From: Candidatus Latescibacterota bacterium
GTDB lineage: Bacteria > Krumholzibacteriota > Krumholzibacteriia > WVZY01 > JAKEHA01
DNA length: 64,000 bases
Direction of reading: 5' to 3'
Assembly: GCA_963736125.1 (NCBI GenBank)
Contig: CAVTNQ010000005.1
Location: 192,218-256,217 of the forward strand
Below, one piece after another: positions 3,905-42,374 of the stretch. Each line of letters starts with the position of its first letter. The stretch's first letter is position 1. The translations under genes were made by a program, and so were the position numbers. The notes under the pieces were generated by a model. The model was not told the DNA's origin. It did no database searches and was given only the letters and a program-made list of their open reading frames with translations.

Positions 3905-3907
3905 CCC

Positions 3908-9828: not shown

Positions 9829-9839
9829 TCCTTCGCGTC

Positions 9840-9972
9840 CCTCACCGACGTTCCACTAACTACCATTTCTATTGAAGATTAGACAAGATAACCGAGAATA
9901 GTAGTAGCTTGGACAGCTACTAGTGATAGAGTTGTTGACCGAGTCCAGTCATAAGTAGTAGTCCTAGCTACT
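9840..9972. promoter_or_regulatory. AT-rich island with TAGTAG/CTACTA inverted repeats upstream of the TrmB-like regulator gene.
   Basis: TAGTAGCT-N5-AGCTACTA at 9902-9923 and TAGTAG-N6-CTACTA at 9956-9973. A TTGACC -35-like hexamer sits at 9935-9940. Local GC is far below the window average. Confidence 0.5.
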
Positions 9973-10746: not shown

Positions 10747-10767
10747 GCACGTCGCGTCGCCACACCG

Positions 10768-13830: not shown

Positions 13831-14103
13831 TCGAGAAAACCTCCCTCGATGGGTCCCGGCGGAACTTCTTGAGGTGCCACTCGGCACCACCCACCGCGCG
13901 GGGTTCCCTCCACTGGTTTTAAGTGACCGGGATCACATTGCAAACCTGAGGCCAGACCCGGCCGCGTGGCGTGCCCGGAGCCCGCAACCATCATGGGGAA
14001 GCATCGGTTACAGGCGGATCGAACGGGCCCGGATGGGCCCTTGGGTACGGGCTGGGGTGGTGTCGCATTGTGCGGCGGGCGGAAGGGAGCTACAGTGACC
14101 CCC

Positions 14104-15915
14104 ATGTCTTTCCGCGACCTCCGGTCTTTTCTCGCCGATCTCGAAGCGATCGGGCAGTTGAAGCGCGTCCGCGTCGAAATCGATCCGCGCTTCGAAGTCG
14201 CGGAGATCGCCCAGCGCGTCGTCCGCGAAGAGGGACCGGCGCTCCTCTTCGAGCGCGTCAAGGGCTCGCGATTCCCGATCGCGATCAACTTCTTCGGGAG
14301 CTTCGCGCGTATCGAGCGCGCGATCGGGATGCACCCGGAGGAGCTGGGCGCGCGGTTGGTTCGATTCGCGGAGGAGTTGAATCCTCCCAGCCTCGGCCGG
14401 CTCGCGGCCGCCAGCGACTTTCTCCCGCGCCTGCTCGCATTTCGACCCGCGCGCGCGGCGCGCGGTGCCAGCCAGGCGGTCGTGGAAGGGAACCCCGACC
14501 TCGACGCCTTGCCGATCATCACCTGCTGGCCGCAAGACGGCGGTCGCTTCATCACGTTCCCGCTTGTGTTCACGCGCCACCCGCGCACGGGGAAGTCGAA
14601 TGTCGGCATTTATCGCATGCAGGTGTTCGACGGCACGTCGACCGGCATGCACTGGCAAATCCACAAAGGCGGCGGGTTCCACTATCGCGAAGCGGAGATG
14701 GCGGGGCACGCGTTGCCGGTGTCGGTGGCTCTCGGCGCCGACCCCGCGCTCATGCTGGCCGGCATCTTCCCGCTTCCCGAAGCACTCGAAGAAATCGCCT
14801 TCGCGGGCATTCTCGCCGCGCGCCGCACACGCCTCGCGCGCGCGCGATCGATCGACCTCGACGTCTTGGCCGACGCGGAGTTTGTAATAGAAGGAGAAGT
14901 GCGACCGCGCGAGCGTCACCCCGAAGGTCCCTTCGGCGATCACTTCGGACACTACTGCGACGTGGCGGACTTTCCCGTGTTCCGTGTCAAGACCATCACG
15001 CGCCGCGCCAACGCCATCTACCCGGCTGCGGTGGTAGGGAAGCCGCCGCAGGAAGATCGCTACATGGGCGATGCGTCGCAGATGATCTTGGGGCCGCTGA
15101 TTCGGCTGATTCGTCCCGAAGTGCGCGACGTGTGGGCCTACTACGAAGCCGGCTTCCACAACTTGCTGGTCGCGTCCGTCGAGGCGCGTTACACGCGCGA
15201 GCCCATTCGCACCGCGATGGGGCTCTTGGGCGAAGGACAGCTCGGGTTGAGCAAGGTGCTGGTCTTGGTCGACCGTAACGTCGACGCGCGGCGTTTCCGC
15301 AACGTGCTGCGCGCGATTCGCGACCACTTCGACCCGCGCGAGAATTTCCACCTCATCTCGCGCGCACCGCTCGACACGCTCGATTTCACCAGTTTCAAGA
15401 TGCATCTGGGCAGTCGCATGATCCTCGATGCGACGGGCAGCCGCGCGCAGTACTCGGGCGGGTCGCCCGCCGCGCACGACGCCGAGGCGCCACACGCGCA
15501 CGCCGCACCGCTTGCGCACGACCCGCGCGAGATGGCGCCGCACGTCAAGGCGTGGCGCGTGTGGGAGGACACCATGCTGGTGGTGCAGGTCGACCGCGTC
15601 GAGCGCGACATCGGGCGTCGTGTGCTGGAACCGCTGGTCAAGGCGCGCGGGACGGCGCACTTGAAGATCGTCGCGGTGGTGAGCCCCGACGTGAATCTCG
15701 ACGACGACGTCGACACGCTGTGGGGAATCTTCACGCGCTTCGACCCCGCGCGCGACCTCATGTTCACCGAGTCGTCGATGCAAGGTGTCCAGCCGCTGTA
15801 CGCCGGTGTGATGGGCATCGACGCCACCTGGAAGCCCGGTTACCCCGACGCCGTCGCCATGGACCCTGAGGTGGTCCGGCGCGTCGACGCGGGCTGGAAC
15901 GACTACTGGGAGTGA
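14104..15915 (+). CDS. UbiD-family (prFMN-dependent) decarboxylase.
   Basis: MSFRDLRSFLADLEAIGQL is the UbiD N-terminal signature. Also present are IITCWPQDGG, GIYRMQV, and HKGGG. The ORF-track start at 13966 is probably too far upstream. The protein has a C-terminal extension beyond a typical UbiD length. Confidence 0.85.
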   Translation: MSFRDLRSFLADLEAIGQLKRVRVEIDPRFEVAEIAQRVVREEGPALLFERVKGSRFPIAINFFGSFARIERAIGMHPEELGARLVRFAEELNPPSLGRLAAASDFLPRLLAFRPARAARGASQAVVEGNPDLDALPIITCWPQDGGRFITFPLVFTRHPRTGKSNVGIYRMQVFDGTSTGMHWQIHKGGGFHYREAEMAGHALPVSVALGADPALMLAGIFPLPEALEEIAFAGILAARRTRLARARSIDLDVLADAEFVIEGEVRPRERHPEGPFGDHFGHYCDVADFPVFRVKTITRRANAIYPAAVVGKPPQEDRYMGDASQMILGPLIRLIRPEVRDVWAYYEAGFHNLLVASVEARYTREPIRTAMGLLGEGQLGLSKVLVLVDRNVDARRFRNVLRAIRDHFDPRENFHLISRAPLDTLDFTSFKMHLGSRMILDATGSRAQYSGGSPAAHDAEAPHAHAAPLAHDPREMAPHVKAWRVWEDTMLVVQVDRVERDIGRRVLEPLVKARGTAHLKIVAVVSPDVNLDDDVDTLWGIFTRFDPARDLMFTESSMQGVQPLYAGVMGIDATWKPGYPDAVAMDPEVVRRVDAGWNDYWE

Positions 15916-16596: not shown

Positions 16597-17214
16597 ATGA
16601 GAACCCGCATGTTGACAGCAGTCGTCGCCGTGGCATTGGCGTTCGCCGTGGCGTCGCACGCCGACGAGAAGAAGCAGGACAAGAAGACCGCCGTCGCCAC
16701 CTTCGCAGGCGGTTGCTTCTGGTGCATGGAGCCGCCGTTCGACTTCATCAAGGGTGTGAAGCGCACGACGTCGGGTTACACCGGCGGCACGGTCAAGAAT
16801 CCCAGCTACGAGCAAGTGTGCACCGGCAAGACCGGCCACGCCGAAGCCATCGAGATCGAGTACGATCCCACGCAGGTGACGTACAACCAACTGCTCGACG
16901 TGTACTGGCACAACATCGATCCCACCGTCAGCAACCGCCAATTCGTCGACCGCGGGACGCAGTATCGAACCGTGATCTTCTATCACGACGAAGAGCAGAA
17001 GCGGCTGGCGGAGGAATCGAAGAAGGACGTGGAGAAGATCTTCGGAACGGTCGAGGTGCAGATCGAACCGGCCGGCCCGTTCTATCCAGCCGAGGAATAT
17101 CATCAGGACTTCTACATGACCAACCCCGACCACTACAATGCCTACCACAATGGAAGCGGTCGCGACCAACGCCTGAAGGAGTTGTGGGGCAAAGACGCTC
17201 CGCCGTCGCACTGA
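16597..17214 (+). CDS. msrA: Peptide methionine-S-sulfoxide reductase MsrA with a signal peptide.
   Basis: The signal peptide is MLTAVVAVALAFAVASHA. The GGCFWC active site and YHQDFY are present. An AAGGAG RBS is upstream. Confidence 0.9.
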   Translation: MRTRMLTAVVAVALAFAVASHADEKKQDKKTAVATFAGGCFWCMEPPFDFIKGVKRTTSGYTGGTVKNPSYEQVCTGKTGHAEAIEIEYDPTQVTYNQLLDVYWHNIDPTVSNRQFVDRGTQYRTVIFYHDEEQKRLAEESKKDVEKIFGTVEVQIEPAGPFYPAEEYHQDFYMTNPDHYNAYHNGSGRDQRLKELWGKDAPPSH

Positions 17215-19850: not shown

Positions 19851-21050
19851 ATGTTTCACACCGTCCACGGCATCACCTTCTCCGACCGCAGCCTGATCCC
19901 GATTTGGGAAAAAGTTCGTGCGGGTGAACGAATCTCGCCCGCAGAAGGCGTTCGCCTCTTCGAGTCCGACGACCTGACGGCGGTCGGTCGCATGGCCGAC
20001 CACGTCGCGCGTGCGCGAAGCGGCGACCGCGTCTACTTCGTCATCAATACCCACGTCAACCCCACGAATGTATGTGTGCTGAACTGCAAGTTCTGCGACT
20101 ACGTCCACAGTAGGAACGACGCGGGCGCGTGGGAGATGACGGTGGACGAAATTCTCGCGCACATTACACCCGAGATGACGGAAGTCCACATCGTCGGCGG
20201 CCACCACCCCGACTGGACCTTCGAGTACCACGAGAACTACATCCGTGCCATCCGCGAAGCGCATCCGCACATCCAGATCAAGGCCTTCACCGCGGCGGAG
20301 ATCGATTACTTCGCCAAGCGCTGGAAGCTCTCGGTCGACGAAATCTTGGATCGACTGATCGCGGCGGGACTGAATTCGATGCCGGGCGGCGGCGCGGAAA
20401 TCTTCTCGAAGCGCATCGCCAAAGAATTGCGTTACATCGGCAAGGCGCAGAGCGACCGCTGGCTTGAGATTCACGCCGCGGCGCACGCGCGCGGGATTCC
20501 GTCGAACGCGACCATGCTCTACGGCCACATCGAGACGTACGCGGAGCGCGTGGAACATCTGCGGCTGTTGCGCGAGCAGCAGGATAAGAGCGGCGGATTC
20601 CTCGCCTTCATTCCGCTCGAGTATCAAATCAGCGCGGAGAAGATCGTGCCGCGGCACGCGACAGCACTCGACGACTTGAAAACGATCGCGGTGTCGCGCT
20701 TGATGCTGGACAACTTTCCGCACGTGAAAGCGTACTGGATCATGCTGCAGGAAGACACGGCCGGCATCGCGCTCAATTTTGGTGCGGACGACGTCGACGG
20801 AACGATAGCGAAGGAACGTATCGCGCACGCGGCCGACGCGCGCAGCCCCGTCGGCGTCACGCGGAAGAAGCTGGTGCGACTGATTCGCGACGCCGAGAAG
20901 ACGCCGGTCGAACGCGACGCCTTGTACAACGTGGTCAAGGTCTACGAAGACGCCGACGTGGCGGCGGTGGTGGAAGACACCTATCGTCCGGTGCAGCGCA
21001 GCCGCGAATCTCCCCGCGCCGGCGCACCGTTGGCAAAGAACGTGAGCTGA
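19851..21050 (+). CDS. Radical-SAM menaquinone biosynthesis enzyme of the MqnC/MqnE family (cyclic dehypoxanthinyl futalosine synthase or aminofutalosine synthase).
   Basis: NPTNVCVLNCKFCDY (Cx3Cx2C), GGHHPDW, and the MLYGHIET...FIPLEYQ motif are shared with CofH/MqnC/MqnE. Confidence 0.85.
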   Translation: MFHTVHGITFSDRSLIPIWEKVRAGERISPAEGVRLFESDDLTAVGRMADHVARARSGDRVYFVINTHVNPTNVCVLNCKFCDYVHSRNDAGAWEMTVDEILAHITPEMTEVHIVGGHHPDWTFEYHENYIRAIREAHPHIQIKAFTAAEIDYFAKRWKLSVDEILDRLIAAGLNSMPGGGAEIFSKRIAKELRYIGKAQSDRWLEIHAAAHARGIPSNATMLYGHIETYAERVEHLRLLREQQDKSGGFLAFIPLEYQISAEKIVPRHATALDDLKTIAVSRLMLDNFPHVKAYWIMLQEDTAGIALNFGADDVDGTIAKERIAHAADARSPVGVTRKKLVRLIRDAEKTPVERDALYNVVKVYEDADVAAVVEDTYRPVQRSRESPRAGAPLAKNVS

Positions 21051-21090: not shown

Positions 21091-21825
21091 ATGAAGCGAA
21101 AACTCATCGTCGCGGCCCTCGCTTTGCTGATGGTGATCGTCGGCATTGCGGTGTTTCTCTATAACTCGATCGATTCGATCGTCGAAGCAGCCATCGAGAA
21201 AGAAGGCTCGCGCGTGCTGGGGACGCGGTTGAGTGTGGGGTCGGTCGACATTTCGCTCAAGTCGGGGCGCGGGACCATTCGCGACGTTTCGATGGCGAAT
21301 CCAAAGGGCTTCTCGTCGAACGAGATGTTCACGCTGGGCGAGATCACGGTCGACATCGACGTCAAGTCGCTCAACCGCGACCCCGTCGTCATCGACGAGA
21401 TCACGATTTCAGCTCCCAAAGTCCGCGCCGAGATGAACGCGCAAGCGCAGACCAACGTGGGTGTCGTCAAGAGTACGGTCGACAAATACCAAAGCGCACC
21501 GGCGCCGAAAGAGCGCAAGGAAGATAGCGGTTTCGAGAAGCGCTTCGTCATCGAGAAGTTTGTATTCGAAGAAGGCACGGTCGACCTCGACGCGACTGCG
21601 ATGGGCGTCGAGGCAACACAGGTGGCACTGCCGCCGGTTCGCTTGAACCACGTCGGCGGATCGAAGGGCGACTCGCCGGACGGCATCGCCAAGACGGTGT
21701 CGCGCGCGTTCCTGGGCGCGGTCACCGATGTGGTCGCGGACGAGGCCAAGCGTCGCGCCACCGACAAGGCCAAAGAAGAGTTGAACAACAAGGCCAAAGA
21801 ACTCATCCACAATCTCGTCAAATAG
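21091..21825 (+). CDS. Hypothetical membrane-anchored protein (N-terminal TM, AsmA-like/DUF).
   Basis: 244 aa. MKRKLIVAALALLMVIVGIAVFLY forms the anchor. An elongated hydrophilic domain follows. Confidence 0.55.
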   Translation: MKRKLIVAALALLMVIVGIAVFLYNSIDSIVEAAIEKEGSRVLGTRLSVGSVDISLKSGRGTIRDVSMANPKGFSSNEMFTLGEITVDIDVKSLNRDPVVIDEITISAPKVRAEMNAQAQTNVGVVKSTVDKYQSAPAPKERKEDSGFEKRFVIEKFVFEEGTVDLDATAMGVEATQVALPPVRLNHVGGSKGDSPDGIAKTVSRAFLGAVTDVVADEAKRRATDKAKEELNNKAKELIHNLVK

Positions 21826-21835: not shown

Positions 21836-22615
21836 ATGATTCGCATCGGAAAGATTCCGTACTTGAACAGCATCTTGTTCTATCACGGCCTCGAGAACGA
21901 GCCAGACGTTCGCTTGGAATCGCTCGTCCCGCGTGCGCTTTCCAGCGCCGCGCTCGAAGGCGAAGTCGACGCGGGTCCGGTTCCGCTCGTGACGGCGTGG
22001 GAGATCGAGGATCGCTTTGCGCCGCTCGGCGACTTCTGTATCTCCACCATCGACCGCGCGCACAGCATTCTCTTCTTCTCGAAGCGCCCGTTCGATCAGC
22101 TCGACGGCGCCGAGATCGGCGTTACCAACCAAACTTCGACGTCGGTGCGCTTGCTGCGAGCTCTGCTCACGCACGCCTGGCGCGTGCGCCCCGCGCGCTT
22201 CACGCACGTCGACTGGCCCACCAACGACGCGTTCCTCCTGATCGGCGACGAAGCGCTGGTGCACCGGCGGGGTGTGAAGGACTATCCGCACGTCGCCGAC
22301 TTGGGCGACGTGTGGCACAAGTGGACCGGACTCCCGTTCGTGTTCGCGCGTTGGATGGTTCGCACGTCGCTCGCCGACGCCGACAAGGCGCGCTTGATCA
22401 CGATGCTCGATCAATCACTCGCGGAAGGGTGGACGCATTTCGAGCGCGTGGTGTCGCCGCGCGCGCACGACCTCCACATGACGATCGAAGAAATGCGCGA
22501 GTACCTGCAGGCGTTTCGCTTCCGCATGACGGCCGCCGAGCACCAGGCGATCGGGAAGTTTCGCCAGTTCGACGACGCGGCGCGTAAAGCGGACAGCGCG
22601 CCCGTCGCGCCCTAG
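21836..22615 (+). CDS. mqnA: Chorismate dehydratase MqnA (futalosine pathway).
   Basis: MIRIGKIPYLNSILFYHGL is the classic MqnA N-terminus. It is the periplasmic-binding-fold type. Confidence 0.85.
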   Translation: MIRIGKIPYLNSILFYHGLENEPDVRLESLVPRALSSAALEGEVDAGPVPLVTAWEIEDRFAPLGDFCISTIDRAHSILFFSKRPFDQLDGAEIGVTNQTSTSVRLLRALLTHAWRVRPARFTHVDWPTNDAFLLIGDEALVHRRGVKDYPHVADLGDVWHKWTGLPFVFARWMVRTSLADADKARLITMLDQSLAEGWTHFERVVSPRAHDLHMTIEEMREYLQAFRFRMTAAEHQAIGKFRQFDDAARKADSAPVAP

Positions 22616-23195: not shown

Positions 23196-24875
23196 TTGCA
23201 GTCACGATTTAAACCCAAGATTGTTACCGTCCTGCGCGAAGGCTACACGCGCCATCTCTTCCTTCGCGACCTCGGCGCCGGCACCATCGTCGGGGTGCTC
23301 GCTCTCCCGCTGGCGCTGGCCTTCGCGATCGCGTCGGGTGTGAAACCCGAACAAGGACTGTTCACCGCGATCGTCGCCGGGTTCGTGATCTCCGCGCTCT
23401 CGGGAAGCCGTGTCCAAATCGGTGGACCGACCGGTGCGTTCATCGTCATCGTTTATGGCGTCGTACAACGCTTCGGGTACGATGGGCTTGCCGTCGCGAC
23501 GCTGATCGCCGGCGTGTTGCTGGTCATCATGGGCATCGCGCGTCTGGGGTCGGTCATTCAGTTCATGCCGTATCCAGTGACGGTCGGATTCACCGCGGGC
23601 ATCGCGCTCATCATCCTGACTTCGCAGCTGCGCGACTTCCTCGGTCTTCAGATGAGCAACGTGCCGGCCGAGTTCGTCGACAAATGGGTCGCGTACGCCG
23701 TAGCGTTTCCGACTTACAATCTCTCCGCCGTCGGCGTAGCGCTTGCAACCGTCCTCATTCTGGTTTACTGGGCGCGCCTGAGCCGAAAGGTGCCGAGCCC
23801 GATCGTCGCTATCGTTGTGACCACCGCGGCCGTGCACCTGCTTCACCTTCCGGTCGAGACGATCGGGAGCCGGTTCGGAAGCGTGCCCAGTTCGCTGCCC
23901 ATGCCGCGGCTACCCCACGTGGATCTGACGTCGGTACGTCAGCTCTTTTCGCCCGCAGTGTCCATTGCGCTCCTCGCGGGAATCGAATCGCTTCTCTCGG
24001 CCGTCGTGGCCGACGGCATGACGGGCCGACGCCATCGGCCCAACACAGAGCTGATCGCGCAGGGTGTCGCCAACATCGCGTCACCGATCTTCGGCGGCAT
24101 TCCCGCGACCGGTGCGATTGCGCGCACCGCCACCAACGTGAAGAACGGCGGCCAAACGCCGTTCGCGGGCATCATCCACGCGGCCGTGCTGCTGCTCATC
24201 ATGGTCTTCTTCGCCAAGTGGGCCGCCCTGGTCCCGATGGCGACCCTCGCGGGCATCCTCGTGGTCACCGCGTATCACATGAGCGAGTGGCGGCTTGCGG
24301 CGCGCGTCTTTCGCAGTACGAAGAGCGACACCGCCGTCATGGCGACGACCTTCCTCTTGACCGTAATGGTGGACCTCTCCCTCGCGATTCAGGTCGGCGT
24401 CGTGCTGGCGTCGCTGCTATTCATCAAGCGTATGGCCGACGTCACCCACACGACGGCGTATCTCGAGGACATGATGGACGATTCGGAACCCGAGGACGCG
24501 GACAGTATCCGGCTTCGCGACGTTCCCAAGGGCGTGGCCGTGTTCGAGATCAACGGGGCGTTCTTCTTCGGCGCCGCCGACAAGTTCAAGAGCACGCTGA
24601 ACACCGTGCAGAAGAAGCCGAAGGTGCTCATTCTGCGCATGCGACATGTCCTGTCGCTGGACGCCACCGCGCTGCGTGCCCTCGAAGACGTGTTCCACAA
24701 GGCGCGTCGGGATGGCACCACGGTCGTGCTCTCGGGCGTGCACGCGCAGCCACTGGTCGTCATGAAGCAATCCGGCTTCGCCGATTTGGTCGGAGTGGAC
24801 AACATGGTGAGCACCATCGATCAAGCCCTGGCGCGGGCGCGCACTCTGACGGAAGGACGTGAGGCCCACGCATAA
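23196..24875 (+). CDS. SulP-family anion transporter with a C-terminal STAS domain.
   Basis: GVLALPLALAFAIASGV... is SulP TM core motif 1. The C-terminal STAS is VFEINGAFFFGAADKF. Confidence 0.9.
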   Translation: MQSRFKPKIVTVLREGYTRHLFLRDLGAGTIVGVLALPLALAFAIASGVKPEQGLFTAIVAGFVISALSGSRVQIGGPTGAFIVIVYGVVQRFGYDGLAVATLIAGVLLVIMGIARLGSVIQFMPYPVTVGFTAGIALIILTSQLRDFLGLQMSNVPAEFVDKWVAYAVAFPTYNLSAVGVALATVLILVYWARLSRKVPSPIVAIVVTTAAVHLLHLPVETIGSRFGSVPSSLPMPRLPHVDLTSVRQLFSPAVSIALLAGIESLLSAVVADGMTGRRHRPNTELIAQGVANIASPIFGGIPATGAIARTATNVKNGGQTPFAGIIHAAVLLLIMVFFAKWAALVPMATLAGILVVTAYHMSEWRLAARVFRSTKSDTAVMATTFLLTVMVDLSLAIQVGVVLASLLFIKRMADVTHTTAYLEDMMDDSEPEDADSIRLRDVPKGVAVFEINGAFFFGAADKFKSTLNTVQKKPKVLILRMRHVLSLDATALRALEDVFHKARRDGTTVVLSGVHAQPLVVMKQSGFADLVGVDNMVSTIDQALARARTLTEGREAHA

Positions 24876-24962: not shown

Positions 24963-26909
24963 ATGACGCCAGGTCTATTTCTTCTTGTCGCGGGCGCGTG
25001 CGCCGCGCTCGGCCTGTTCGTCTTTCGAGCGCCGCGCGTGTGGTTGGTCGCCACGATGGTCGGAGCGGCCGCGGCACTCGCGGCCTCGGGGTGGGTACTC
25101 GTCTCCGGCCAGACCTGGGATTGGCGACTCGCTGTGACGCTGGGGGGCGAAGGACTCCACCTTCGTTTGGACGCCATCAGCGCTTTCTTCCTCGCACTGC
25201 TCGCGACCATCGGCGGTGCGTGCAGTCTGTACGCGCACGGATATTGGACGGACGCAGAGCACCCTGCTTCGGCCCCTTCCGGTCGTGCCTGGTTGAGCGC
25301 CGTTATGGCTAGCATGGCCTTGGTGCTGCTCTCCACCAACGGGCTGCATTTCCTCATCGCGTGGGAAGCGTTTTCAGTCGGCGTGTACTTCCTCATCACG
25401 CTCGAACGTCACAAGAGCGAAGTTCGTTCGTCGGGTTGGCTCTTCTTCGCGGCATCGCGCGCGGGGACCCTGTGCTTGGTGGTGTTTTTCGTCGGCCTGG
25501 CGACGCGGACGGGAAGCTGGGAACTGGGACCGATGCGAGATCGTCCGGAGCTCGCGCCGTGGTTCTGGCTCGCGCTATGCGGTTTCGGTCTCAAGGCTGG
25601 GATGTATCCGCTCCACATTTGGCTCCCATCCGCGCACGGCAACGCACCTAGCCATGTTTCGGCCTTCCTATCCGGCGTCGCCATCAAGATGGGAATCTAC
25701 GGCTTGGTGCGATTCAGCGGATGGCTGCCCACACCCGAAGCAGCCGGCTGGGTCGTCGCCGCGCTGGGCGCGACCAGCGCCGTGCTAGGTGTGGCGTTCG
25801 CGCTTGGCCAGCACGACCTCAAGCGGCTGCTCGCATACCACAGCGTAGAGAACATCGGCATCATCCTCATGGGACTCGGTTTCGCGATGATGGCCGCGGC
25901 CCACGGCCATGCACTTTGGGGGCAGCTTGCGTTGGCGGGCAGCCTGTTGCACGTGTGGAATCATGGCCTCTTCAAGGCGCTCCTGTTTCTCGGCGCCGGG
26001 TCGGTGCTGCATTCCACGGGCACGCGCGAAATGAGCCGGCTCGGCGGGCTTTGGCGCACCATGCCGTGGACCGCGGGCATGTTTGCACTCGGGGCAGTTG
26101 CCATCGCAGGGCTTCCGCCGCTGAACGGTTTCATAAGCGAGTTGCTCGTGTATCTCGGTCTCTTCGGCGCCGCGTCGTCGCATGGTCCTCTGTCATGGGT
26201 TGCCGCGCCGGCGGCGATCCTTCTTTGCATGACGGGCGCTCTCGCGTTGGCGTGCTTCGTCAAAGCTTGCGGCGTCGTCTTCCTCGGACTCCCACGCAGC
26301 GAGGCTGCGGCCAAGGCGCACGAGAGCGGTTGGGTCATGCGTGTGCCCATGCTGCTGCTGGGTCTGGCGTGCGTGATCATCGGCCTCGCGCCGGCACAAG
26401 TGTGGCCATTGCTGGCAAGCCCGATATCGGCGTGGAGTTCGGCGTGGACAGGGGGCGCCGTCCCTGTTCCGCTGGCTGCATTGGGCGGATTCAACATCGG
26501 CCTCGTGGTGCTTTCCGTGCTGGTGGCCGTCGGTCTTCGGCGCCGCGTCAGGCACAATGGAATCGAGCGGGCGGTCACGTGGGACTGCGGGTACGTCCGG
26601 CCGACGCCGCGCATGCAGTACACGGCCGGCTCCTTCGCCGCGATCATCACCGCGTGGTTTTCGTGGGCACTCCGCCCCCGCCGACACACGCGCTTGCCGA
26701 AGACACAGTTTCCGGCCCATGCGAGCTTCGAAGAACATACGCCCGAGACCATCCTGGCCTACGTGGTCGAACCCGGGGGCCGGCTCGTCATGCATGCCGT
26801 CGGTGCGGCGCGACGCCTTCAACACGGACGCATCCAAGCCTACGTCCTTTATGTGTTGATCGGTGTCGTGGGGTTAGCACTTCTCTCGGTCATCGGAGCA
26901 AGTCGATGA
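24963..26909 (+). CDS. Hyf/Hyc-type complex antiporter-like subunit (HyfB/HycC/NuoL-like).
   Basis: About 650 aa with about 16 TM helices. LLAYHSVENIGIILMG...WNHGLFKALLFLGAGSV are NuoL/M signatures. It starts at MTPGLFLL. Confidence 0.85.
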   Translation: MTPGLFLLVAGACAALGLFVFRAPRVWLVATMVGAAAALAASGWVLVSGQTWDWRLAVTLGGEGLHLRLDAISAFFLALLATIGGACSLYAHGYWTDAEHPASAPSGRAWLSAVMASMALVLLSTNGLHFLIAWEAFSVGVYFLITLERHKSEVRSSGWLFFAASRAGTLCLVVFFVGLATRTGSWELGPMRDRPELAPWFWLALCGFGLKAGMYPLHIWLPSAHGNAPSHVSAFLSGVAIKMGIYGLVRFSGWLPTPEAAGWVVAALGATSAVLGVAFALGQHDLKRLLAYHSVENIGIILMGLGFAMMAAAHGHALWGQLALAGSLLHVWNHGLFKALLFLGAGSVLHSTGTREMSRLGGLWRTMPWTAGMFALGAVAIAGLPPLNGFISELLVYLGLFGAASSHGPLSWVAAPAAILLCMTGALALACFVKACGVVFLGLPRSEAAAKAHESGWVMRVPMLLLGLACVIIGLAPAQVWPLLASPISAWSSAWTGGAVPVPLAALGGFNIGLVVLSVLVAVGLRRRVRHNGIERAVTWDCGYVRPTPRMQYTAGSFAAIITAWFSWALRPRRHTRLPKTQFPAHASFEEHTPETILAYVVEPGGRLVMHAVGAARRLQHGRIQAYVLYVLIGVVGLALLSVIGASR

Positions 26910-27823
26910 ACGTCACGCTCCATGCAATCCGCGTGTTCATGAGCATCGCGATCTGGTTGCTGATTGCCCCGCTGGTGCCGGGTGTCATCAACAAGGTGAA
27001 GGCGTGGATCGCGGGGCGAACGGGGCCGCCCGTCCTGCAGCTCTACTCCGACCTCGCGCGATTGTGGCGCAAGGGAGTCGTGTTGAGCACGGCCGTCTCC
27101 CCCGGCCACGTGGTGGGGCCGGCGGTGGCGTTCGTCTCGCTCGTCGGGGCGTCGTTGCTTCTGCCGGTGGGGCGAAGCGGAGCGCCAATCGCGTTCGAAG
27201 GCGACGCGGTGCTGTTCGTGTACTTGATGGCTCTGGCGCGCTTCTCGATGTCCTACGCCGCCCTGGAAACCGGATCGGCATTCGAGGGAATGGGTGCCGC
27301 GCGCGAGGTGAGCTTCGCGGTGCTCGCGGAGATCGCCGTCATGACCGCGTTGCTGGTGCTCAGCGTCAAGACGGGCAGCGTGTCCTTGACGAAGATGCTC
27401 GCGCCGGCCGCGGGACCGGGCACCGCGCTGCTCGCGGCCGGACTCTATATGGTGCTCCTGGCGGAGAATTGCCGCGTGCCGTTCGACGACCCGAACACAC
27501 ACTTGGAACTAACCATGATTCACGAAGTCATGGTGCTCGACCACAGCGGTCCGCCTCTGGCGATGATTCTGCACGGCGCCGCGCTCAAGCTCTTGGTATT
27601 CTGCGTTCTGTTGACGGAGGCCGTGGTTCCCCTCGGCGGTTTGTCGCCGGTCGTCGTGGCGGCGACTCTCTTGGGTGGTGTGCTCGCGACGGCGGTGAGC
27701 GTGGGTGTGGTCGAATCGATGCAGGCGCGACTGCCATTCCGTCGCGTGCCGATGCTGCTGACGACGGCATTCTTGCTCTGCCTCTTCGCGCTCATGATCG
27801 CATGGGAAGGGAGTCCGCGATGA
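26906..27823 (+). CDS. HyfC/HycD-like membrane subunit (NuoH-like).
   Basis: The ATGA overlap with the upstream gene indicates coupling. 8 TM helices. RVPFDDPNTHLELTMIHEV resembles the NuoH/HycD loop. Confidence 0.8.
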   Translation: MNVTLHAIRVFMSIAIWLLIAPLVPGVINKVKAWIAGRTGPPVLQLYSDLARLWRKGVVLSTAVSPGHVVGPAVAFVSLVGASLLLPVGRSGAPIAFEGDAVLFVYLMALARFSMSYAALETGSAFEGMGAAREVSFAVLAEIAVMTALLVLSVKTGSVSLTKMLAPAAGPGTALLAAGLYMVLLAENCRVPFDDPNTHLELTMIHEVMVLDHSGPPLAMILHGAALKLLVFCVLLTEAVVPLGGLSPVVVAATLLGGVLATAVSVGVVESMQARLPFRRVPMLLTTAFLLCLFALMIAWEGSPR

Positions 27824-28461
27824 GCGACGCCGGCAACCTCCTCGTCGGAGTCGCCATGGGGTTGAACCTGATCGGCCTGGCCAGCAGCCGGCTGACGTCG
27901 CTCATTCGCGCGGCGGCAATTCAGGGGATGGTGCTCGGCATCCTCCCGCTGTTGCTCGGGCACGGGTCGAATTGGTGGGTGATCATGGTCTCGGCGGCGA
28001 CCGTCGCCGTGAAGGGATTCCTGATACCCGCCCTGTTGCGCAAGGCGCTGCGCTCGGCCCACATCGACCGCGAAGTACAACCGCTCATTCCATTCGTCCC
28101 CTCGCTTTTGCTCGGTGCGGCCGCGACCGTCGGCGCCGTGGCGCTCGGCGGTGTACTGCCGCTGCGACCCGAACACGCGCACTCGCTCGTCGTACCGGGT
28201 GCCTTCGCGACCGTCGTGTCCGGCTTCCTGCTCTTGATGGGGCGCGCCAAGGCGATCGCGCAGGTCTGCGGCTACCTCATGCTCGAAAACGGCATCTACA
28301 TGTTCGGTCTGTTGCTCATCGGCTCCACACCGATCATGGTCGAGGCCGGGATCCTGCTCGACCTCACCGTGGCGGTATTCGTGGTCGGCATCATCGTGGA
28401 TCGAATCCAGCGCGAGTTCGATTCGCTCGACACCCGTCGTCTCACCGCGTTGCACGAATGA
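27820..28461 (+). CDS. HyfE/MbhE-like small membrane subunit (NuoK-like with an extension).
   Basis: ATGA overlap with the upstream gene. 214 aa with 6 TM helices. GYLMLENGIYMFGLLL resembles NuoK. Confidence 0.7.
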   Translation: MSDAGNLLVGVAMGLNLIGLASSRLTSLIRAAAIQGMVLGILPLLLGHGSNWWVIMVSAATVAVKGFLIPALLRKALRSAHIDREVQPLIPFVPSLLLGAAATVGAVALGGVLPLRPEHAHSLVVPGAFATVVSGFLLLMGRAKAIAQVCGYLMLENGIYMFGLLLIGSTPIMVEAGILLDLTVAVFVVGIIVDRIQREFDSLDTRRLTALHE

Positions 28462-29903
28462 TCGAGATCGCCCTCATCGTCGTACCGCTATTGCTAGCGG
28501 CCCTCGCGATGGCGTGGCCGTCGCAACGAACGCGACCGTGGCTCCTTCCGGTCGGCGGCGCAGCGCACGCGTTGCTCGTGTCCACGCTCTTGCTGCGGCC
28601 GCCCGCGCAGCCCTTCAGCGCGTGGCTCGGATTCGACGAATTGACGCGGGCCGTGTTGCCGATGGTTTCGATCTTGTTTCTGGTGTGCTCGATCTACGCC
28701 GTCGCGTATCTGCGGATTCGATCGAACCAATCCAACCGTGTGTTCGTCGCGATGCTGCTTTCGCTGCATGCCCTGTTCAGCTTCGCACTGCAAGCGCGTC
28801 ATCTCGGTTTGCTGTGGATTGGGGTCGAAGCCGCCACGCTGTTGACGGTTCCCCTGCTGCACTTCAACAACACCGCGCGCGCCATCGAAGCGACCTGGAA
28901 ATATCTGATCGTCGGCGGAACGGGGATCGCGCTCTCATTGCTCGGCTCGTTTTGCTTGGGCTACGCGTCGCTCCTCGGCGGCGGAAGCGGCGACCTCACC
29001 TTCGCCGGATTGGTGAGCCGGGGCTCGACACTCTCACCGCCGTGGTTGGTGGCCGCGTGGGTGTTGCTGCTCGCGGGATACGGCACGAAGATGGGACTCG
29101 CGCCGATGCACACCTGGAAGCCCGACGCGTACGGAGAAGCGCCGGGCGTCGTCGGAGCCATCCTCGCGGGCGGCGCGACAACGATCGCGTTCGTCGCCGT
29201 GCTGCGCGTGAAGCAGGTCGTGGACGCCGCGGGCGCGGGGCCGATGACGGAGCGAACGCTGCTCGTCTTCGGATTGTTTTCGATGGTGGTGGCGGCGCTG
29301 TTTCTCCTCGGCACGCGGGACTTCAAGCGAATGCTCGCTTACTCCAGCGTAGAGCACATGGGTATTCTCGCGGTGGGCGCCGCGTTTGGAGCCGCGGGTC
29401 TGTCGGCGGCATTGTTCCACGTGTGGAACAACGGCCTGACCAAGGGTGCCCTCTTCCTGAGTGCCGGCAATATTCGGCGCGCCGCGCGGGCCCGGACCGT
29501 CGACACCGTGTCCGGGATGGTGTGGTGTTCGCCAGTTTCCGCGCGCCTGCTCATCGTGGGACTCTTTGCAATCACCGCTATCCCGCCGTTCGGTCCATTC
29601 TTCAGCGAACTGCGCATCGTGGGAGCCGGACTGGAAAGGGGGCACGAGGGCGCGATCGTCGTGTTCATCATCTGCGTCTTCCTGGCGTTCCTAGGTCTCG
29701 CGCGGTTGATGTTCGCCATCGTGGATGGGCGCCCGCGCCCGCCCGCCCGCGAGGAACTTCGCGCCAGCGGCGGCGAGACAGCGGGCGTCGTGGTCCCTCC
29801 GCTGTTGTTCCTCGGCTTTTCGCTGTGGCTCGGCCTGGCCGCGCCCTCGTGGCTGCAACAATCCTGGAGCGCGGCCGCCGCGTTTCTCCACCCCGTACGA
29901 TGA
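28458..29903 (+). CDS. HyfF-like antiporter-like subunit (NuoN/M-like).
   Basis: ATGA overlap with the upstream gene. MLAYSSVEHMGILAVG...WNNGLTKGALFLSAGN are NuoM/N signatures. Confidence 0.85.
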   Translation: MIEIALIVVPLLLAALAMAWPSQRTRPWLLPVGGAAHALLVSTLLLRPPAQPFSAWLGFDELTRAVLPMVSILFLVCSIYAVAYLRIRSNQSNRVFVAMLLSLHALFSFALQARHLGLLWIGVEAATLLTVPLLHFNNTARAIEATWKYLIVGGTGIALSLLGSFCLGYASLLGGGSGDLTFAGLVSRGSTLSPPWLVAAWVLLLAGYGTKMGLAPMHTWKPDAYGEAPGVVGAILAGGATTIAFVAVLRVKQVVDAAGAGPMTERTLLVFGLFSMVVAALFLLGTRDFKRMLAYSSVEHMGILAVGAAFGAAGLSAALFHVWNNGLTKGALFLSAGNIRRAARARTVDTVSGMVWCSPVSARLLIVGLFAITAIPPFGPFFSELRIVGAGLERGHEGAIVVFIICVFLAFLGLARLMFAIVDGRPRPPAREELRASGGETAGVVVPPLLFLGFSLWLGLAAPSWLQQSWSAAAAFLHPVR

Positions 29904-31369
29904 ACACGTCGCGCGAATTCGCCGTGTCGAGAAACGGCAAGAGCCTTCCGTGGAGGGACGTGCCGGAGTGGGACCCGGACAACTTCGTTGCCGCGGTCGG
30001 CGCGCAGTTGAACGCCGGTGCGCGCCTGTGCGCGTTGTTCGGCGTGCCGGAGGGCGAGGCCACGTACCTGGTAGCTGTGGTCGCATTCGACACCACCGGC
30101 ACGCTGGCGGTCGGACGGAGCGCGCCCATCCGAGGGCGGTATCACGCGCTCACACCGCGATACCCGCAAGCGCACCTGTTCGAGCGCGAATTGTGTGAGA
30201 CGCACGGTCTCGTCCCCGAGGGTCACCCGTGGCTCAAACCGGTGCGCGCCGATACCGGCGCGGCCGCGTTCTTCGAAGTCGCAGGAGGCGAGATCCACGA
30301 GGTCGCGGTCGGTCCCGTGCACGCCGGCATCATCGAACCCGGCCACTTCCGTTTTCAATGTAACGGCGAAGAGGTGCTGTTCCTCCAAATCGCCCTGGGG
30401 TTTCAGCACCGCGGGATCGAAGCGGCGCTCTCGGGCGGCCCGCACCGGGCGACGATGAGCCAGATGGAAACTATCGCGGGAGATACGACCAGCGCCCACG
30501 CAACCGCCTACGCGATGGTGCTCGAAGCGCTCGCGAACGTGGAAACGCCGCTGCGCGCGCAGTGGATTCGTGCGATCGCACTCGAGTTGGAGCGCTTGGC
30601 CAATCACACCGGCGACCTCGGCGCGTTGGCCAACGACGTCGCGTTCTTGCCGACCTCCGCCGCGTGCGGCCGCATCCGGGGCGACTTCCTCAATCTTACC
30701 GCGACGCTATGCGGCAATCGGTTCGGGCGCGGGCTGGTGCGTCCGGGCGGGTGTCGATTGGACCTCGAGCCGGAGCGAGCGGCGCGCGTGTGGGATCAAC
30801 TGCGCATCTCGCTGGCGGAGGCGGACGAAGCCGCTTCGTGGCTGTGGGAGTCGAACTCGACGCGCACGCGCTTCGAAGGCGTCGGTGTGGTGACGAACGA
30901 GCAGGCGGAATCGTTGGGCATGGTCGGCCCGGCGGCGCGCGCGTCCGGCCTCTCGCGCGACGTGCGCGTCGATCACCCGGCCGGGTGGCATCGCTCCGCG
31001 CAGATCCCGATTGCGATCGCACCGGGCGGCGACGTCTTCGCGCGCGCGCGTGTTCGCTGGCTCGAGCTCCAACGTTCCGGCCAATTCTTGGTCGAGCAGC
31101 TCGAGTCCGCGCCGCGTGGCGAGATCCGCGTACCGCTCGCCACGCTGGCCGCGGACACGCTGTCGGTCGCGCTCGTCGAGGGCTGGCGCGGCGAAGTCTG
31201 CCACGTGGCACTCACCGACGAATCCGGTCGGCTGCGCCGATACAAGATCGTGGACCCGTCCTTCCACAACTGGTCCGCGCTCGCTATGGCCATGCGCACG
31301 CAAGCGATCTCAGATTTTCCTTTGTGCAACAAGAGCTTCAACCTTTCATACTGCGGCTTCGATCTCTGA
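29900..31369 (+). CDS. NuoC-NuoD-type fused 'large subunit' of a group-4-hydrogenase-like complex that has lost the [NiFe]-binding cysteines (Ehr-type).
   Basis: GPVHAGIIEPGHFRF is conserved. The L1 position reads ETIAGDTTSAH instead of ERxCGxCxxxH. The C-terminal L2 reads DPSFHNW instead of DPCxxC. ATGA overlap with the upstream gene. Confidence 0.8.
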   Translation: MNTSREFAVSRNGKSLPWRDVPEWDPDNFVAAVGAQLNAGARLCALFGVPEGEATYLVAVVAFDTTGTLAVGRSAPIRGRYHALTPRYPQAHLFERELCETHGLVPEGHPWLKPVRADTGAAAFFEVAGGEIHEVAVGPVHAGIIEPGHFRFQCNGEEVLFLQIALGFQHRGIEAALSGGPHRATMSQMETIAGDTTSAHATAYAMVLEALANVETPLRAQWIRAIALELERLANHTGDLGALANDVAFLPTSAACGRIRGDFLNLTATLCGNRFGRGLVRPGGCRLDLEPERAARVWDQLRISLAEADEAASWLWESNSTRTRFEGVGVVTNEQAESLGMVGPAARASGLSRDVRVDHPAGWHRSAQIPIAIAPGGDVFARARVRWLELQRSGQFLVEQLESAPRGEIRVPLATLAADTLSVALVEGWRGEVCHVALTDESGRLRRYKIVDPSFHNWSALAMAMRTQAISDFPLCNKSFNLSYCGFDL

Positions 31370-31371
31370 CC

Positions 31372-32172
31372 ATGTCTATTATAGAAACCATCAAATATCG
31401 GCTTCGGCGCGGGTGCGCGACGATGGACTATCCCGACGGCCCGGCCCCGGCCCTGCCCGACCGGCACGGCGGTGCATTGCGAGTCGAACCCTCGAAATGC
31501 GTCGACGGTTGCACGGCGTGCGAATCCGTTTGCCCCACACTCGCCATCACGCGACCGTCTGGTGGCACGGTGGCACTCGACTTGGGTCGGTGTCTGTTTT
31601 GCTCCGCGTGCGTAGAAGTTTGCCCGACGCACGCCATCACGCATACCGGCGACCACCGCATCGCCGCAATGCGTCGCGAGGACTTGATCCTCGGCGAGGG
31701 CGCCGAAGAAGTTCGCCTCGCGGGTGCCTTGGACGAGAAGTTGCGCGCGCTGTTCGGACGGTCGTTGCGCTTGCGGCAAGTTAGTGCGGGCGGGTGCAAC
31801 GGGTGCGAGAGCGACATCAACGTGCTCGGCACCATCGGCTGGGACTTGAGCCGCTTCGGCATCCAGTTCGTGGCCTCCCCCCGCCACGCCGACGGTCTGC
31901 TGGTGACCGGCCCGGTGACGCGCAACATGCGAGCTGCGCTGGAGAAGACGTACGCCGCGGTGCCGGCCCCGAAGATCGTCATCGCCGCGGGCGCTTGCGC
32001 CATCGCGGGCGGTCCATTCGTCGATCTGCCGCAGGTCGGTAACGGGGCCGCGAGTGTGGTGCCCGTCGACCTCTACATCGCCGGCTGCCCGCCCCACCCG
32101 TTGACGGTTCTCGACGGCCTGCTCCGACTCCTCGGGCGGCTGGAGGATCAACAACGCACACCGCAGCGGTAG
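31372..32172 (+). CDS. Fusion of a 2x[4Fe-4S] ferredoxin (HycF/NuoI-like) and a hydrogenase small subunit (HycG/NuoB-like).
   Basis: CVDGCTACESVCP and CLFCSACVEVCP are the ferredoxin motifs. GGCNGCE...GACAIAGGPF...GCPPHP matches the NuoB/HycG cluster-ligand pattern. Confidence 0.85.
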   Translation: MSIIETIKYRLRRGCATMDYPDGPAPALPDRHGGALRVEPSKCVDGCTACESVCPTLAITRPSGGTVALDLGRCLFCSACVEVCPTHAITHTGDHRIAAMRREDLILGEGAEEVRLAGALDEKLRALFGRSLRLRQVSAGGCNGCESDINVLGTIGWDLSRFGIQFVASPRHADGLLVTGPVTRNMRAALEKTYAAVPAPKIVIAAGACAIAGGPFVDLPQVGNGAASVVPVDLYIAGCPPHPLTVLDGLLRLLGRLEDQQRTPQR

Positions 32173-32199
32173 TTCGCACGTTGTGCTAGACTGACGGCC

Positions 32200-33312
32200 A
32201 TGCTGGACACGATTCGCACCAAGATCGAACGCGGCGAGCGCATCACGCGCGACGAGGGCCTGTTCCTCCTGCGCGATGCTCCTCTGCTCGAATTGGCCCC
32301 GCTCGCGATGGCGACGCGCTGGCGGTTGAACCCCGAGCGCCGCGTCACGTTCGTCATCGACACCAATCTCAATTACACCAACACCTGCGACGCGTTCTGC
32401 GCGTTTTGTGCGTTCTATCGGACACCGGGACAGCAGGGCGAATACACCTACACCATCGAGCAGATGATGGAGCAATTCGCACGCGCGCGTGAGATGGGCG
32501 TCACCACCGTGCTCCTGCAGGGCGGGCTCAACAGCGCGATACCGTTCGAGTACTACCTCGACTTGGTGCGCACGACACGGGAGCGTTTCCCCGACGTTCA
32601 TCCGCACTTCTTTTCGGCGCCCGAAGTGATGAAGATGACCGAAGTGTCGGGCCTATCGCTCGACGAAGTCATCGCGCGCCTCTACCGTGCCGGCCTGCGC
32701 TCGATTCCCGGCGGGGGCGCCGAGATCTTGACCGACCGCGTGAAGCAGGAGATCTCGAAGCTGTGGCCCAAGGGAACCACCAAAGATTGGGTCGACGTGC
32801 ATCGCGCCGCGCACAAGGGCGGCATGCGTTCGACCGCGACCATGATGTACGGCCACATCGAGACCGACGAAGACGTGATCGAACACTTGGACGTCGTGCG
32901 CGCGCTGCAGGACGACACCGGCGGATTCACCGCCTTCATTCCGTGGAGCTACAAGCGCGACCAGAATCCGCTCGCGCGCCGCGTGACGACCGAAGCGGGG
33001 CCCAATCGATACCTGCGCATGATCGCGGTGTCGCGCATCTACCTGGATAACATCCAGCACGTGCAGGCGTCGTGGTTCTCGGAAGGAAAGAAGACCGGTG
33101 TCGTCGCGCTCCATTTCGGCGGCGACGATTTCGGCGGCACCATCTTCGACGAAAACGTGATGCAGGAAGCCGGCTTCTATAATAGAACCACCATCGACGA
33201 GACCGTGGCACTCATACGCGACGCCGGCTTCGCCCCCGCCCAGCGCACGACGCTGTACGAGATCGTGCGGGCGTTCCCCGTGAGTGAGTTGGCGTCGTCG
33301 CGAAGCGCCTAG
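32200..33312 (+). CDS. Radical-SAM menaquinone enzyme, MqnE/MqnC family. Tentatively aminofutalosine synthase MqnE because of its CofH-like CxFCAF motif.
   Basis: NYTNTCDAFCAFCAFY (Cx3Cx2C), GGLNSAIPFEYY, and MMYGHIETDED...FIPWSYK. The assignment to E versus C is inference only. Confidence 0.85.
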   Translation: MLDTIRTKIERGERITRDEGLFLLRDAPLLELAPLAMATRWRLNPERRVTFVIDTNLNYTNTCDAFCAFCAFYRTPGQQGEYTYTIEQMMEQFARAREMGVTTVLLQGGLNSAIPFEYYLDLVRTTRERFPDVHPHFFSAPEVMKMTEVSGLSLDEVIARLYRAGLRSIPGGGAEILTDRVKQEISKLWPKGTTKDWVDVHRAAHKGGMRSTATMMYGHIETDEDVIEHLDVVRALQDDTGGFTAFIPWSYKRDQNPLARRVTTEAGPNRYLRMIAVSRIYLDNIQHVQASWFSEGKKTGVVALHFGGDDFGGTIFDENVMQEAGFYNRTTIDETVALIRDAGFAPAQRTTLYEIVRAFPVSELASSRSA

Positions 33313-41537: not shown

Positions 41538-42374
41538 CTAGACCCAGAGGATGTCGAGGTTGGGAAGAGCCGTGAGAAGGCCGCGCTTCACGGCCCGAGA
41601 GTAGAGAGTCTCGAGAGCCCTTCGACCCTCGTCTCCCATGTCGACGGTGTCGTCGTTCACGTACATGCGGACGAACTTGCGGCAGACCTCGCGTTCGACG
41701 CCCCGCCCGAACTGCATCGCGTAGTCGACCGCGTCCTCTTCTTCGCTGTGCGCGAGCTGAATACTCTGCTTGAGCGCCCGCGCGACGGCGTCCATGGTGG
41801 CACTGCCGAGGCCGCGTCGAACGACGTCGAGGCCGAGCGGGATCGGGAGTCCGGTGTCTTCCGTCCACGCCGCTCCCAGATCGACGACGACCTGGAGCCC
41901 GCTCGAAGGCCACGTGAGCTGGCCTTCGTGGATGACGATCCCCGCGTCGACCTCGCCGCTCGCGACGGCTCCCATAATCTTATCGAAGTCCATCATGACG
42001 GGCGTGATCTCGCCGGGGACATAGAGTCGAAACAGGAGGTAAGCGGTCGTGCGCGGACCCGGCACCGCGACGCGCCGGCCGGCGAGTTCGGAGACCGAAT
42101 AGGGTTCGCGAGCGAGCACGATCGGGCCGTAGCGACGGCCCACCGACGCCCCGCACGACATGATTCGATATAGGTGCTGGATCTCGGGGTAGGCCGCGGC
42201 CGAGATCGCCGTCACGTCCAGCTCCGCTCCGTGCGCGCGTCGATTCAGCGTCTCGATGTCGTCGAGCACGTGGTCGACCCGATAGCCCGGAACGGCGACA
42301 CGCCCCGACGCGAGGCCGTAGAACATGAATGCGTCGTCGGCGTCGGGACTATGACCGATGGAAAGCGTTTTCAT
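41538..42374 (-). CDS. mqnD: 1,4-dihydroxy-6-naphthoate synthase MqnD (futalosine pathway).
   Basis: LSIGHSPDADDAFMFYGL is the hallmark MqnD N-terminus. 278 aa. Confidence 0.9.
   Translation of the reverse strand: MKTLSIGHSPDADDAFMFYGLASGRVAVPGYRVDHVLDDIETLNRRAHGAELDVTAISAAAYPEIQHLYRIMSCGASVGRRYGPIVLAREPYSVSELAGRRVAVPGPRTTAYLLFRLYVPGEITPVMMDFDKIMGAVASGEVDAGIVIHEGQLTWPSSGLQVVVDLGAAWTEDTGLPIPLGLDVVRRGLGSATMDAVARALKQSIQLAHSEEEDAVDYAMQFGRGVEREVCRKFVRMYVNDDTVDMGDEGRRALETLYSRAVKRGLLTALPNLDILWV

Follow-up and report, generated by a model that had tools for sequence, protein, structure and literature searches.

The region analyzed here, referred to as the window, is a stretch of 64,000 nucleotides (nt) from a Candidatus Latescibacterota bacterium (contig CAVTNQ010000005.1), and coordinates are positions in this window unless a related locus (designated L) is named. 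Positions 24963-32172 are occupied by six co-directional genes, all on the plus strand and with intact reading frames, which are predicted to encode a membrane complex similar to the Hyf and Hyc complexes of Escherichia coli. Judging from the comparisons described below, this cassette is a member of the already known Ehr family, whose complexes are called energy-converting hydrogenase-related. A previous inspection of the DNA and its open reading frames (ORFs), made without database searches and called here the sequence-only reading, had proposed a six-gene hyf/hyc-like complex, and both the coordinates and the profile searches agree with it.

The first four of the five cassette junctions are ATGA overlaps. 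The fifth, between the large-subunit and Fe-S-subunit genes, is TGAccATG with a 2-nt gap, so that the ATGA coupling proposed for all six genes applies to four junctions only. The assignments of the HyfB-like, HyfF-like and NuoH-like HyfC subunits were borne out by the Pfam and NCBIfam models (Table 1), and the best NCBIfam match of the HyfB-like subunit was the hydrogenase-4 subunit B model (530 bits). The third product had been described as a "NuoK-like HyfE"; its relation to HyfE could be retained (hhalign probability of 98% against E. coli HyfE), but not that to NuoK, since hhalign gave no signal for NuoK (probability 0.3%), NuoJ or NuoA. None of these three was found by tblastn in the 64-kb window. 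The match of the large subunit to Complex1_49kDa and, weakly, to Complex1_30kDa is in line with the proposed NuoC-NuoD fusion, and the Fe-S subunit, in which a Fer4 dicluster is followed by an Oxidored_q6 domain, is the expected fusion of a 2x[4Fe-4S] protein with a small subunit. The gene downstream of the cassette, previously given as MqnE/C-type, is MqnC and not MqnE (TIGR03699, above cutoff).

Maturation and electron-donor genes were also searched for. No matches were obtained over the 64 kb by tblastn with E. coli HypA-E, HycI, HycH and NuoE/F/G (HypF and FdhF were not among the queries), and the matches of the E. coli Hyp, Hyc, Hyf and Nuo queries were confined to the cassette genes, with HycB giving only a marginal match inside the Fe-S subunit gene. 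Pfam scans of 48 window ORFs, including the cassette and its flanks, revealed no maturation or donor module either, as had been claimed for hyp, endopeptidase and NuoEFG genes.

The large subunit, the iron-sulfur chain and the membrane arm

The active-site alignment comprised 79 family members (the window sequence and 78 relatives) together with E. coli HycE, HyfG and NuoCD, and HMMER alignments to the PDB chains 7z0s_E, 6cfw_L and 2fug_4 agreed with it. The large subunit carries the group-4 hallmark GPVHAGIIEPGHFRF and retains the motif GPxHxxxxEPGHFR, the His of L1 and the Arg of PRG. The hydrogenase motifs L1 (RxCGxCxxxH) and L2 (DPCxxCxx(H/R)) are absent, and the window has ETIAGDTTSAH and NLSYCGFDL. 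At L1, ETIAGDTTSAH aligns with DRVCGICGFAH of HycE, with A193 in place of C241 and T196 in place of C244; at L2, DPCYSC of HycE aligns with the C-terminal NLSYCG, with S483 in place of C531 and G486 in place of C534. The sequence-only reading had recognized the hallmark and the L1 segment, but had misplaced L2 at DPSFHNW, which aligns with AATYANW of HycE and TPSFAHL of NuoCD. Scoring of the L1 and L2 columns, which it had suggested as a check, showed that the four Ni-Fe ligand columns are devoid of Cys in all 79 family sequences, and its conclusion stands despite the correction: the large subunit is predicted to be unable to hold a Ni-Fe centre. Moreover, the protein terminates with ...CGFDL where HycE has its processing site, and there is thus no C-terminal extension to process.

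E146, H200 and R430 of the hydrogenase second shell have been kept, and an invariant D246 aligns with NuoCD D325, a position occupied by Phe in HycE and HyfG. In profile comparisons the large subunit scored best against HycE (7z0s_E, 3.4e-43), followed by MbhL (6.5e-31), Nqo4 (4.3e-30) and MbsL (6u8y_L, 2.1e-21). HycE 7z0s_E was also the best fold match found by Foldseek (TM score 0.83), ahead of E. coli NuoCD, for an AlphaFold2 (AF2) model with a predicted TM score (pTM) of 0.84. This top PDB match is merely 26% identical, and apparently no close relative had been solved as of April 2026.

Conservation across phyla reaches 97% or more at about 160 of the 489 large-subunit positions. These positions include six Cys residues (C154, C256, C271, C434, C476 and C485) and the polar residues D195 and H456, all conserved in the family at this level and missing from HycE, HyfG and NuoCD; the invariant C485 lies one residue ahead of the fourth Ni-ligand column. 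The AF2 confidence score (pLDDT) falls below 50 precisely at the most conserved loops (114-149, 455-459 and 474-489), which suggests that these loops need contact with partner subunits or a cofactor in order to fold.

These Cys residues raise the possibility of a reductase of sulfur or thiol substrates similar to Pyrococcus MBS (formerly MBX), which would use the family Cys of the rebuilt pocket and would not act on a quinone. The position of C485, the retained second-shell residues and the detectable homology to MbsL are compatible with such an enzyme. HycE is far closer than MbsL, however, the gene content is Hyf-like rather than MBS-like, and no conserved sulfur-metabolism genes were found nearby when the flanking ORFs of 81 loci were clustered. 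In addition, the AF2 model places C256 and C271 at opposite ends of a single predicted helix, so that the six Cys cannot share one site. We therefore regard a sulfur reductase as improbable.

The twelve Fe-S Cys residues of the window are found in one protein and are enough for three [4Fe-4S] clusters. All eight NuoI-type Cys are present, at least 95% conserved in 72 relatives, and the proximal-cluster Cys C142, C145, C209 and C239 align with those of HycG and HyfI, in agreement with the pattern noted earlier. The small-subunit domain has C142-x2-C145 (CxxC) where NuoB has a tandem CC. As a separate observation, A237 (positions 32080-32082) replaces a Pro of the I-P-G-C-P-P-H-P motif in the window and in L082; Pro is found in this column in 71 of 72 sequences, and the replacement is a lineage-specific change beside a cluster ligand.

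The channel residues of the membrane arm are conserved. In the HyfB-like subunit E114, K190, K221, H309, H313 and E372 are invariant among 59 relatives, and the HyfF-like subunit has an invariant E105 and K192 and, in 66 of 68 relatives, E365. In both antiporter-like subunits the Glu of transmembrane helix (TM) 5, the Lys of TM7 and the Glu of TM12 show no or almost no variation, and the Lys of TM8 and the His of TM11 are invariant in the HyfB-like one. In the NuoH-like subunit E142, D194, E201, D212 and R275, at least 95% conserved, correspond to NuoH E157, D213, E220, E228 and R291. The shared D246/D325 and these E-channel residues can be taken as hints of a complex I-like coupling.

Overall homology to HycE/HyfG, NuoCD and the Hyf membrane subunits would also be expected of a genuine [NiFe] group-4 hydrogenase, of the Hyf or formate hydrogenlyase type, or of part of a canonical complex I operon. 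To either of these we give next to no credence. The ligand-column Cys are missing in 79 of 79 sequences and the C-terminal extension is absent; the quinone His and Tyr are missing and CxxC replaces the NuoB tandem CC; and the window has neither hyp (HypA-E queried) nor hycI genes, nor NuoA/J/K/E/F/G. In the neighbour-joining tree, moreover, the family forms a single tight clade apart from HycE/HyfG and NuoCD, so that the phylogeny also suggested as a check places the large subunit outside NuoCD. Both candidates are refuted at the sequence level.

Distribution and neighbouring genes

More than 8000 database relatives of the large subunit were counted, a lower bound in which wider NuoD/HycE homologues may be included, and relatives were found in at least 588 GTDB species. 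The homologues are overwhelmingly from Verrucomicrobiota, with identities of 64-75%; relatives with 52-60% identity occur in Planctomycetota, Myxococcota, Acidobacteriota, Binatia, Methylomirabilota, Nitrospiraceae, Elusimicrobia, Fibrobacteres and Geobacteraceae. Wherever the contig allows its inspection, the order HyfB-HyfC-HyfE-HyfF-large subunit-Fe-S subunit recurs in 80 loci spanning about 15 phyla, the Geobacteraceae locus L072 among them. The sole exception is L001 (75% identical; 266-11479), where the cassette is split: HyfE and HyfF are found at 266-2244 and the large subunit at 10001, and the space between them holds a divergent second pair of HyfB/HyfC-like genes (identities of 41% and 39%).

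The dN/dS values of every cassette gene, calculated against relatives of 98% and 78% identity, were 0.10-0.15 and point to strong purifying selection. No compositional signal of a recent horizontal transfer was found, the third-position GC content (GC3) being 0.76-0.86 in the cassette and 0.80-0.85 in its flanks. In L081 (98% identical; 6449-8383) frame breaks can be observed in the Fe-S subunit gene and in MqnC; they are probably assembly indels and not pseudogenes, because the adjoining genes are intact.

These data bear on the view that Ehr clusters are decaying, functionless relics of hydrogenase operons. A 2026 paper (PMC13194489) treats the Ehr of Geobacter KN400 as non-functional, and the catalytic metal site is indeed gone. 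The dN/dS values, the roughly 160 conserved positions and the flank-like GC3 do not support this view, and neither do the intact, overlapping frames nor the gene order kept across so many phyla and species. In G. sulfurreducens all Ehr subunits were detected as proteins, more abundant on formate (PMC7894505). A functionless relic is in our opinion very improbable.

The SulP gene upstream of the cassette, whose score against the NCBIfam DauA model (511 bits) lies under the equivalog cutoff of 614, proved to be a stronger association than the sequence-only reading had supposed. Of about 24 verrucomicrobial loci, 11 carry SulP on the same strand upstream of the cassette, as do none of about 40 loci of other phyla. 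In L082 the SulP stop codon and the HyfB start codon overlap (ATGA), indicating translational coupling. SulP is thus probably the first gene of the operon and co-transcribed with the complex in this lineage. A promoter and terminator scan of 19.5-34.5 kb gave counts not above those of shuffled sequences, with one promoter-like site before MqnE, and so provides no evidence for or against co-transcription.

Of about 60 loci whose upstream DNA is long enough, about 55, from across the phyla, carry a gene of about 215-260 codons combining the domains HTH_17 and PTS_EIIA_2 (HTH-EIIA gene), which came from a targeted search and not from the flanking-ORF clustering. It adjoins the cassette upstream or, in loci with a duplicated HyfB, is found beside the HyfB copies or between them; in L023 and L036 SulP, too, has a copy ahead of it. 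The ALPH/AVPH histidine is kept in the two copies that were read (L005 and L006). No copy is present in the 64-kb window, nor in L082. The window HyfB is closest to the single HyfB of loci with the order SulP-EIIA-HyfB, from which we infer that the EIIA gene was probably deleted in the window lineage. Besides SulP and the HTH-EIIA gene, no flanking ORF family occurs in more than 6 of the 81 loci, and the clustering of all flanking ORFs revealed no conserved donor or acceptor enzyme, dehydrogenase or NuoEFG/HycB/FdhF partner.

The cassette is surrounded by genes of menaquinone biosynthesis. Eight futalosine-pathway or late menaquinone genes lie within one stretch of about 40 kb (Table 1), and the SulP-Ehr block forms part of a string of twelve co-directional genes that begins with MqnE, closes with MqnC and has no gap larger than 87 nt. 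The same MqnE-to-MqnC layout is found in L082 (78% identical), and MqnC also lies downstream in L081, whose contig starts at HyfB, and in L083. MqnC is nevertheless a neighbour rather than a conserved component of the complex. The menaquinone genes are interspersed with those of a DUF1223-SelR (MsrB) fusion protein (8467-9828) and of a separate MsrA (16597-17214).

Table 1. Features of the window and of related loci, with the supporting profile matches.
Feature	Position	Strand	Support or remark
PF02621 gene	2642-3451		menaquinone gene
UbiA	11712-12560		menaquinone gene
UbiX-like flavoprotein	12563-13204		menaquinone gene
UbiD	13966-15915		menaquinone gene
MqnE	19851-21050	+	TIGR03700, 457 bits (cutoff 434.6)
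DUF748 gene	21091-21825	+	between MqnE and PF02621 gene
PF02621 gene, MqnA/D-type	21836-22615	+	VitK2_biosynth 5e-52
SulP-family anion transporter with STAS domain, DauA-like	23196-24875	+	Pfam Sulfate_transp 1.8e-84 plus STAS
HyfB-like (EhrA) antiporter-like subunit, 648 aa	24963-26909	+	Proton_antipo_M 3.8e-49
HyfC/HycD/NuoH-like (EhrB) membrane subunit, 305 aa	26906-27823	+	Pfam NADHdh 2e-24; ATGA overlap with HyfB
HyfE-like (EhrC) membrane subunit, 213 aa	27820-28461	+	NCBIfam hydrogenase-4 membrane subunit 7.5e-19; ATGA overlap
HyfF-like (EhrD) antiporter-like subunit, 481 aa	28458-29903	+	Proton_antipo_M 4.2e-46; HyfF models 240-252 bits; ATGA overlap
NuoC-NuoD-type fused large subunit (EhrL), 489 aa	29900-31369	+	Complex1_49kDa 3.8e-34 and weak Complex1_30kDa
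Fe-S subunit (EhrS), HycF/NuoI-like 2x[4Fe-4S] fused to HycG/NuoB-like domain, 266 aa	31372-32172	+	Fer4 families and Oxidored_q6 5.6e-27
MqnC, cyclic dehypoxanthinyl futalosine synthase	32200-33312	+	TIGR03699, 438.6 bits (cutoff 428.1); 27 nt past the cassette
PF02621 gene	41538-42374	-	third PF02621 paralogue
HTH-EIIA gene	L005:3936-4715; L006:4070-4864; L072:3558-4193		about 50 more loci
Proximal-cluster loss	L003, L008, L010, L012, L013, L014, L017, L025, L031, L035, L068, L074		window equivalent 31795-32088

Possible modes of action

The core of the sequence-only reading was supported by every test run, with corrections to the position of L2, the number of overlaps and the weight given to MqnC. 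We consider it fairly probable that the cassette encodes a functional Ehr complex, with the group-4 architecture of Hyf and Hyc but without a Ni-Fe centre, which couples a redox reaction to ion translocation. A soluble low-potential carrier, most likely ferredoxin, would dock, in the manner of Ech and Mbh, on the HycF/NuoI-like domain; a soluble redox partner is argued for by the lack of a conserved cis-encoded donor or acceptor partner. Electrons would run via the three clusters to a rebuilt pocket between the large subunit, the small-subunit domain and the NuoH-like subunit, where the reduction of an acceptor other than protons would drive the translocation of H+ or Na+ via HyfC, HyfE, HyfB and HyfF. 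The complex could also operate in reverse, and the ion gradient could energise uptake by SulP. As for the acceptor in this organism, menaquinone is our best guess, although a doubtful one.

Several observations weigh against a redox-driven complex of this kind, or against a quinone as its acceptor. The quinone ligands of complex I are missing, NuoCD H224 corresponding to an invariant I145 and Y273 to an invariant G194. The adjacency of MqnC, which had been taken as a hint of a quinone function, is real, but menaquinone genes were found within 10 kb of the cassette in none of the 80 other loci and not in G. pickeringii; the link is found only in close relatives of the window, and is thus lineage-specific and weak evidence for a quinone function. 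Ehr complexes, perhaps of another subfamily, have also been reported in bacteria without an identified complete quinone pathway (PMC6349859), and the literature on Ehr complexes was found to contain neither a reported function nor biochemical data.

The proximal-cluster Cys, finally, are lost in 12 of 72 relatives belonging to at least two separate clades (an Opitutaceae-rich clade, together with L035 and two Planctomycetota). Typical replacements are C142 by D or N, C145 by E or A, C209 by E and C239 by W, as in NEEW for CCCC. These relatives keep the eight NuoI-type Cys and all invariants of the large subunit and membrane arm, and the only coupled change elsewhere is that of T191 to A or V in the L1 motif. 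A loss of the cluster with the rest kept is hard to reconcile with an obligatory, family-wide electron path to the pocket of the large subunit. When the Fe-S subunit was used as query against 1.84 billion representative proteins, 318 matches at E values of at most 1e-30 were obtained; all four proximal-cluster Cys are present in 80 of the 121 matches with coverage, but the best 150 matches are mostly fragments, and the frequency of cluster loss therefore cannot be estimated from this search.

The cluster-less relatives also bear on the possibility that the complex is a non-redox or redox-regulated cation/proton transporter similar to Mrp, with the peripheral arm as a structural or regulatory cap and a gradient used, for example, by a SulP symporter. 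That the antiporter, NuoH-like and large-subunit invariants are kept without the proximal cluster would be understandable for such a transporter, as would the recurrence of SulP upstream of the cassette, translationally coupled in L082, and the HTH-EIIA gene found across phyla ahead of the cassette and, in some loci, ahead of SulP too. EIIA-Ntr-type proteins regulate ion transporters. On the other hand, the window Fe-S subunit retains all twelve Cys, the NuoI-type Cys are at least 95% conserved even in members without the proximal cluster, about 160 invariant positions would be unusual for a mere structural cap, and the EIIA gene is missing from the window itself. We regard such a transporter as quite unlikely.

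It is also conceivable, although unlikely, that a new site has been built in the old Ni-Fe cavity. Lined by A, T, S and G, this cavity could have become a site for a new cofactor, for ligand binding or for conformational coupling, and could serve regulated ion or anion transport and not respiration. It is flanked by the family invariants D195, H456, C485, C476, C434 and C154, and is unchanged even in lineages without the proximal [4Fe-4S] cluster. The coupling to SulP and the conserved HTH-EIIA gene are what would point such a site towards regulated transport.

At its active site the Ehr family shows neither the chemistry of hydrogenases nor that of complex I. The leads that emerge from the comparison, namely this feature, the purifying selection, the wide spread, the family's own invariant residues, the loss of the cluster and the recurring HTH-EIIA and SulP partners, could be tested in cultured Geobacter or Opitutaceae.

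Relation to known complexes

E. coli hydrogenase 4 (HyfA-J) and hydrogenase 3 (HycB-G, PDB 7z0s), both of group 4a, share with the window the HyfB, HyfC, HyfE and HyfF homologues in the same order, and their HycE is the best sequence and fold match of the window large subunit. They differ in that the window replaces all four ligand Cys, has no C-terminal extension and fuses the HycF-like and HycG-like proteins, and in that no HyfA/HycB, HycH/HyfJ, HycI or Hyp genes were found (HypF and FdhF not being among the queries). With complex I (NuoB, NuoCD, NuoH, NuoI and NuoL/M/N) the window shares the modular design, a large subunit without a metal centre, the E-channel and antiporter residues and NuoCD D325 (D246 in the window). 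Unlike complex I, it has the quinone His and Tyr replaced, CxxC in place of the tandem-CC N2 motif, and no NuoA/J/K/E/F/G.

Ech, Mbh (PDB 6cfw) and MBS (PDB 6u8y) are, like the window complex, minimal complexes without a dedicated donor module. Mbh and Ech retain the Ni-Fe Cys, whereas the window large subunit does not; MBS has a different, Mrp-rich membrane arm, whereas the gene content of the window is Hyf-like and MbsL is a weaker match than HycE. The invariant Cys specific to Ehr appear to be present neither in Mbh and Ech nor in MBS.

Ehr complexes have been reported in Geobacter, Nitrospira, mycobacteria, ammonia-oxidising archaea and relatives of Cyanobacteria. The wider Ehr class was reportedly described by Marreiros et al. 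in 2013 as a "missing link" to complex I. The Ehr genes of Geobacter (ehrA-1, ehrA-2, ehrB, ehrC, ehrD, ehrL and ehrS) are attributed to Coppi 2005 in PMC13194489. The window adds one further member to this family.

The window differs from the Geobacter Ehr in having one HyfB-like gene instead of two, a SulP gene ahead of the cassette and genes of menaquinone biosynthesis around it. The HTH-EIIA gene, common in relatives, is missing from both the window and G. pickeringii. In the G. pickeringii locus (L087, from CP009788; L087:2228-4885) the upstream HyfB-like gene, of the ehrA-1 type, lies on the opposite strand, and a PemK-family toxin gene, with no HTH-EIIA gene, separates it from the remaining cluster. 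This cluster consists of two HyfB-like genes followed by the NuoH-like, HyfE-like, HyfF-like, large-subunit and small-subunit genes, a composition that fits the published subunit list of the G. sulfurreducens Ehr (GSU0739-45) as far as a comparison of lists can tell. The subunit types and their order in the Geobacter Ehr are those of the window, and in both the Ni-Fe Cys are missing and the small subunit has the proximal-cluster Cys. The large subunit of the cultured G. pickeringii (P0162) is 51% identical to that of the window over its full length, has the same neighbours, which agrees with the Ehr assignment made in the sequence-only reading, and shares the same C-terminal end, ...FPLCNKSFNLSYCGFDL.

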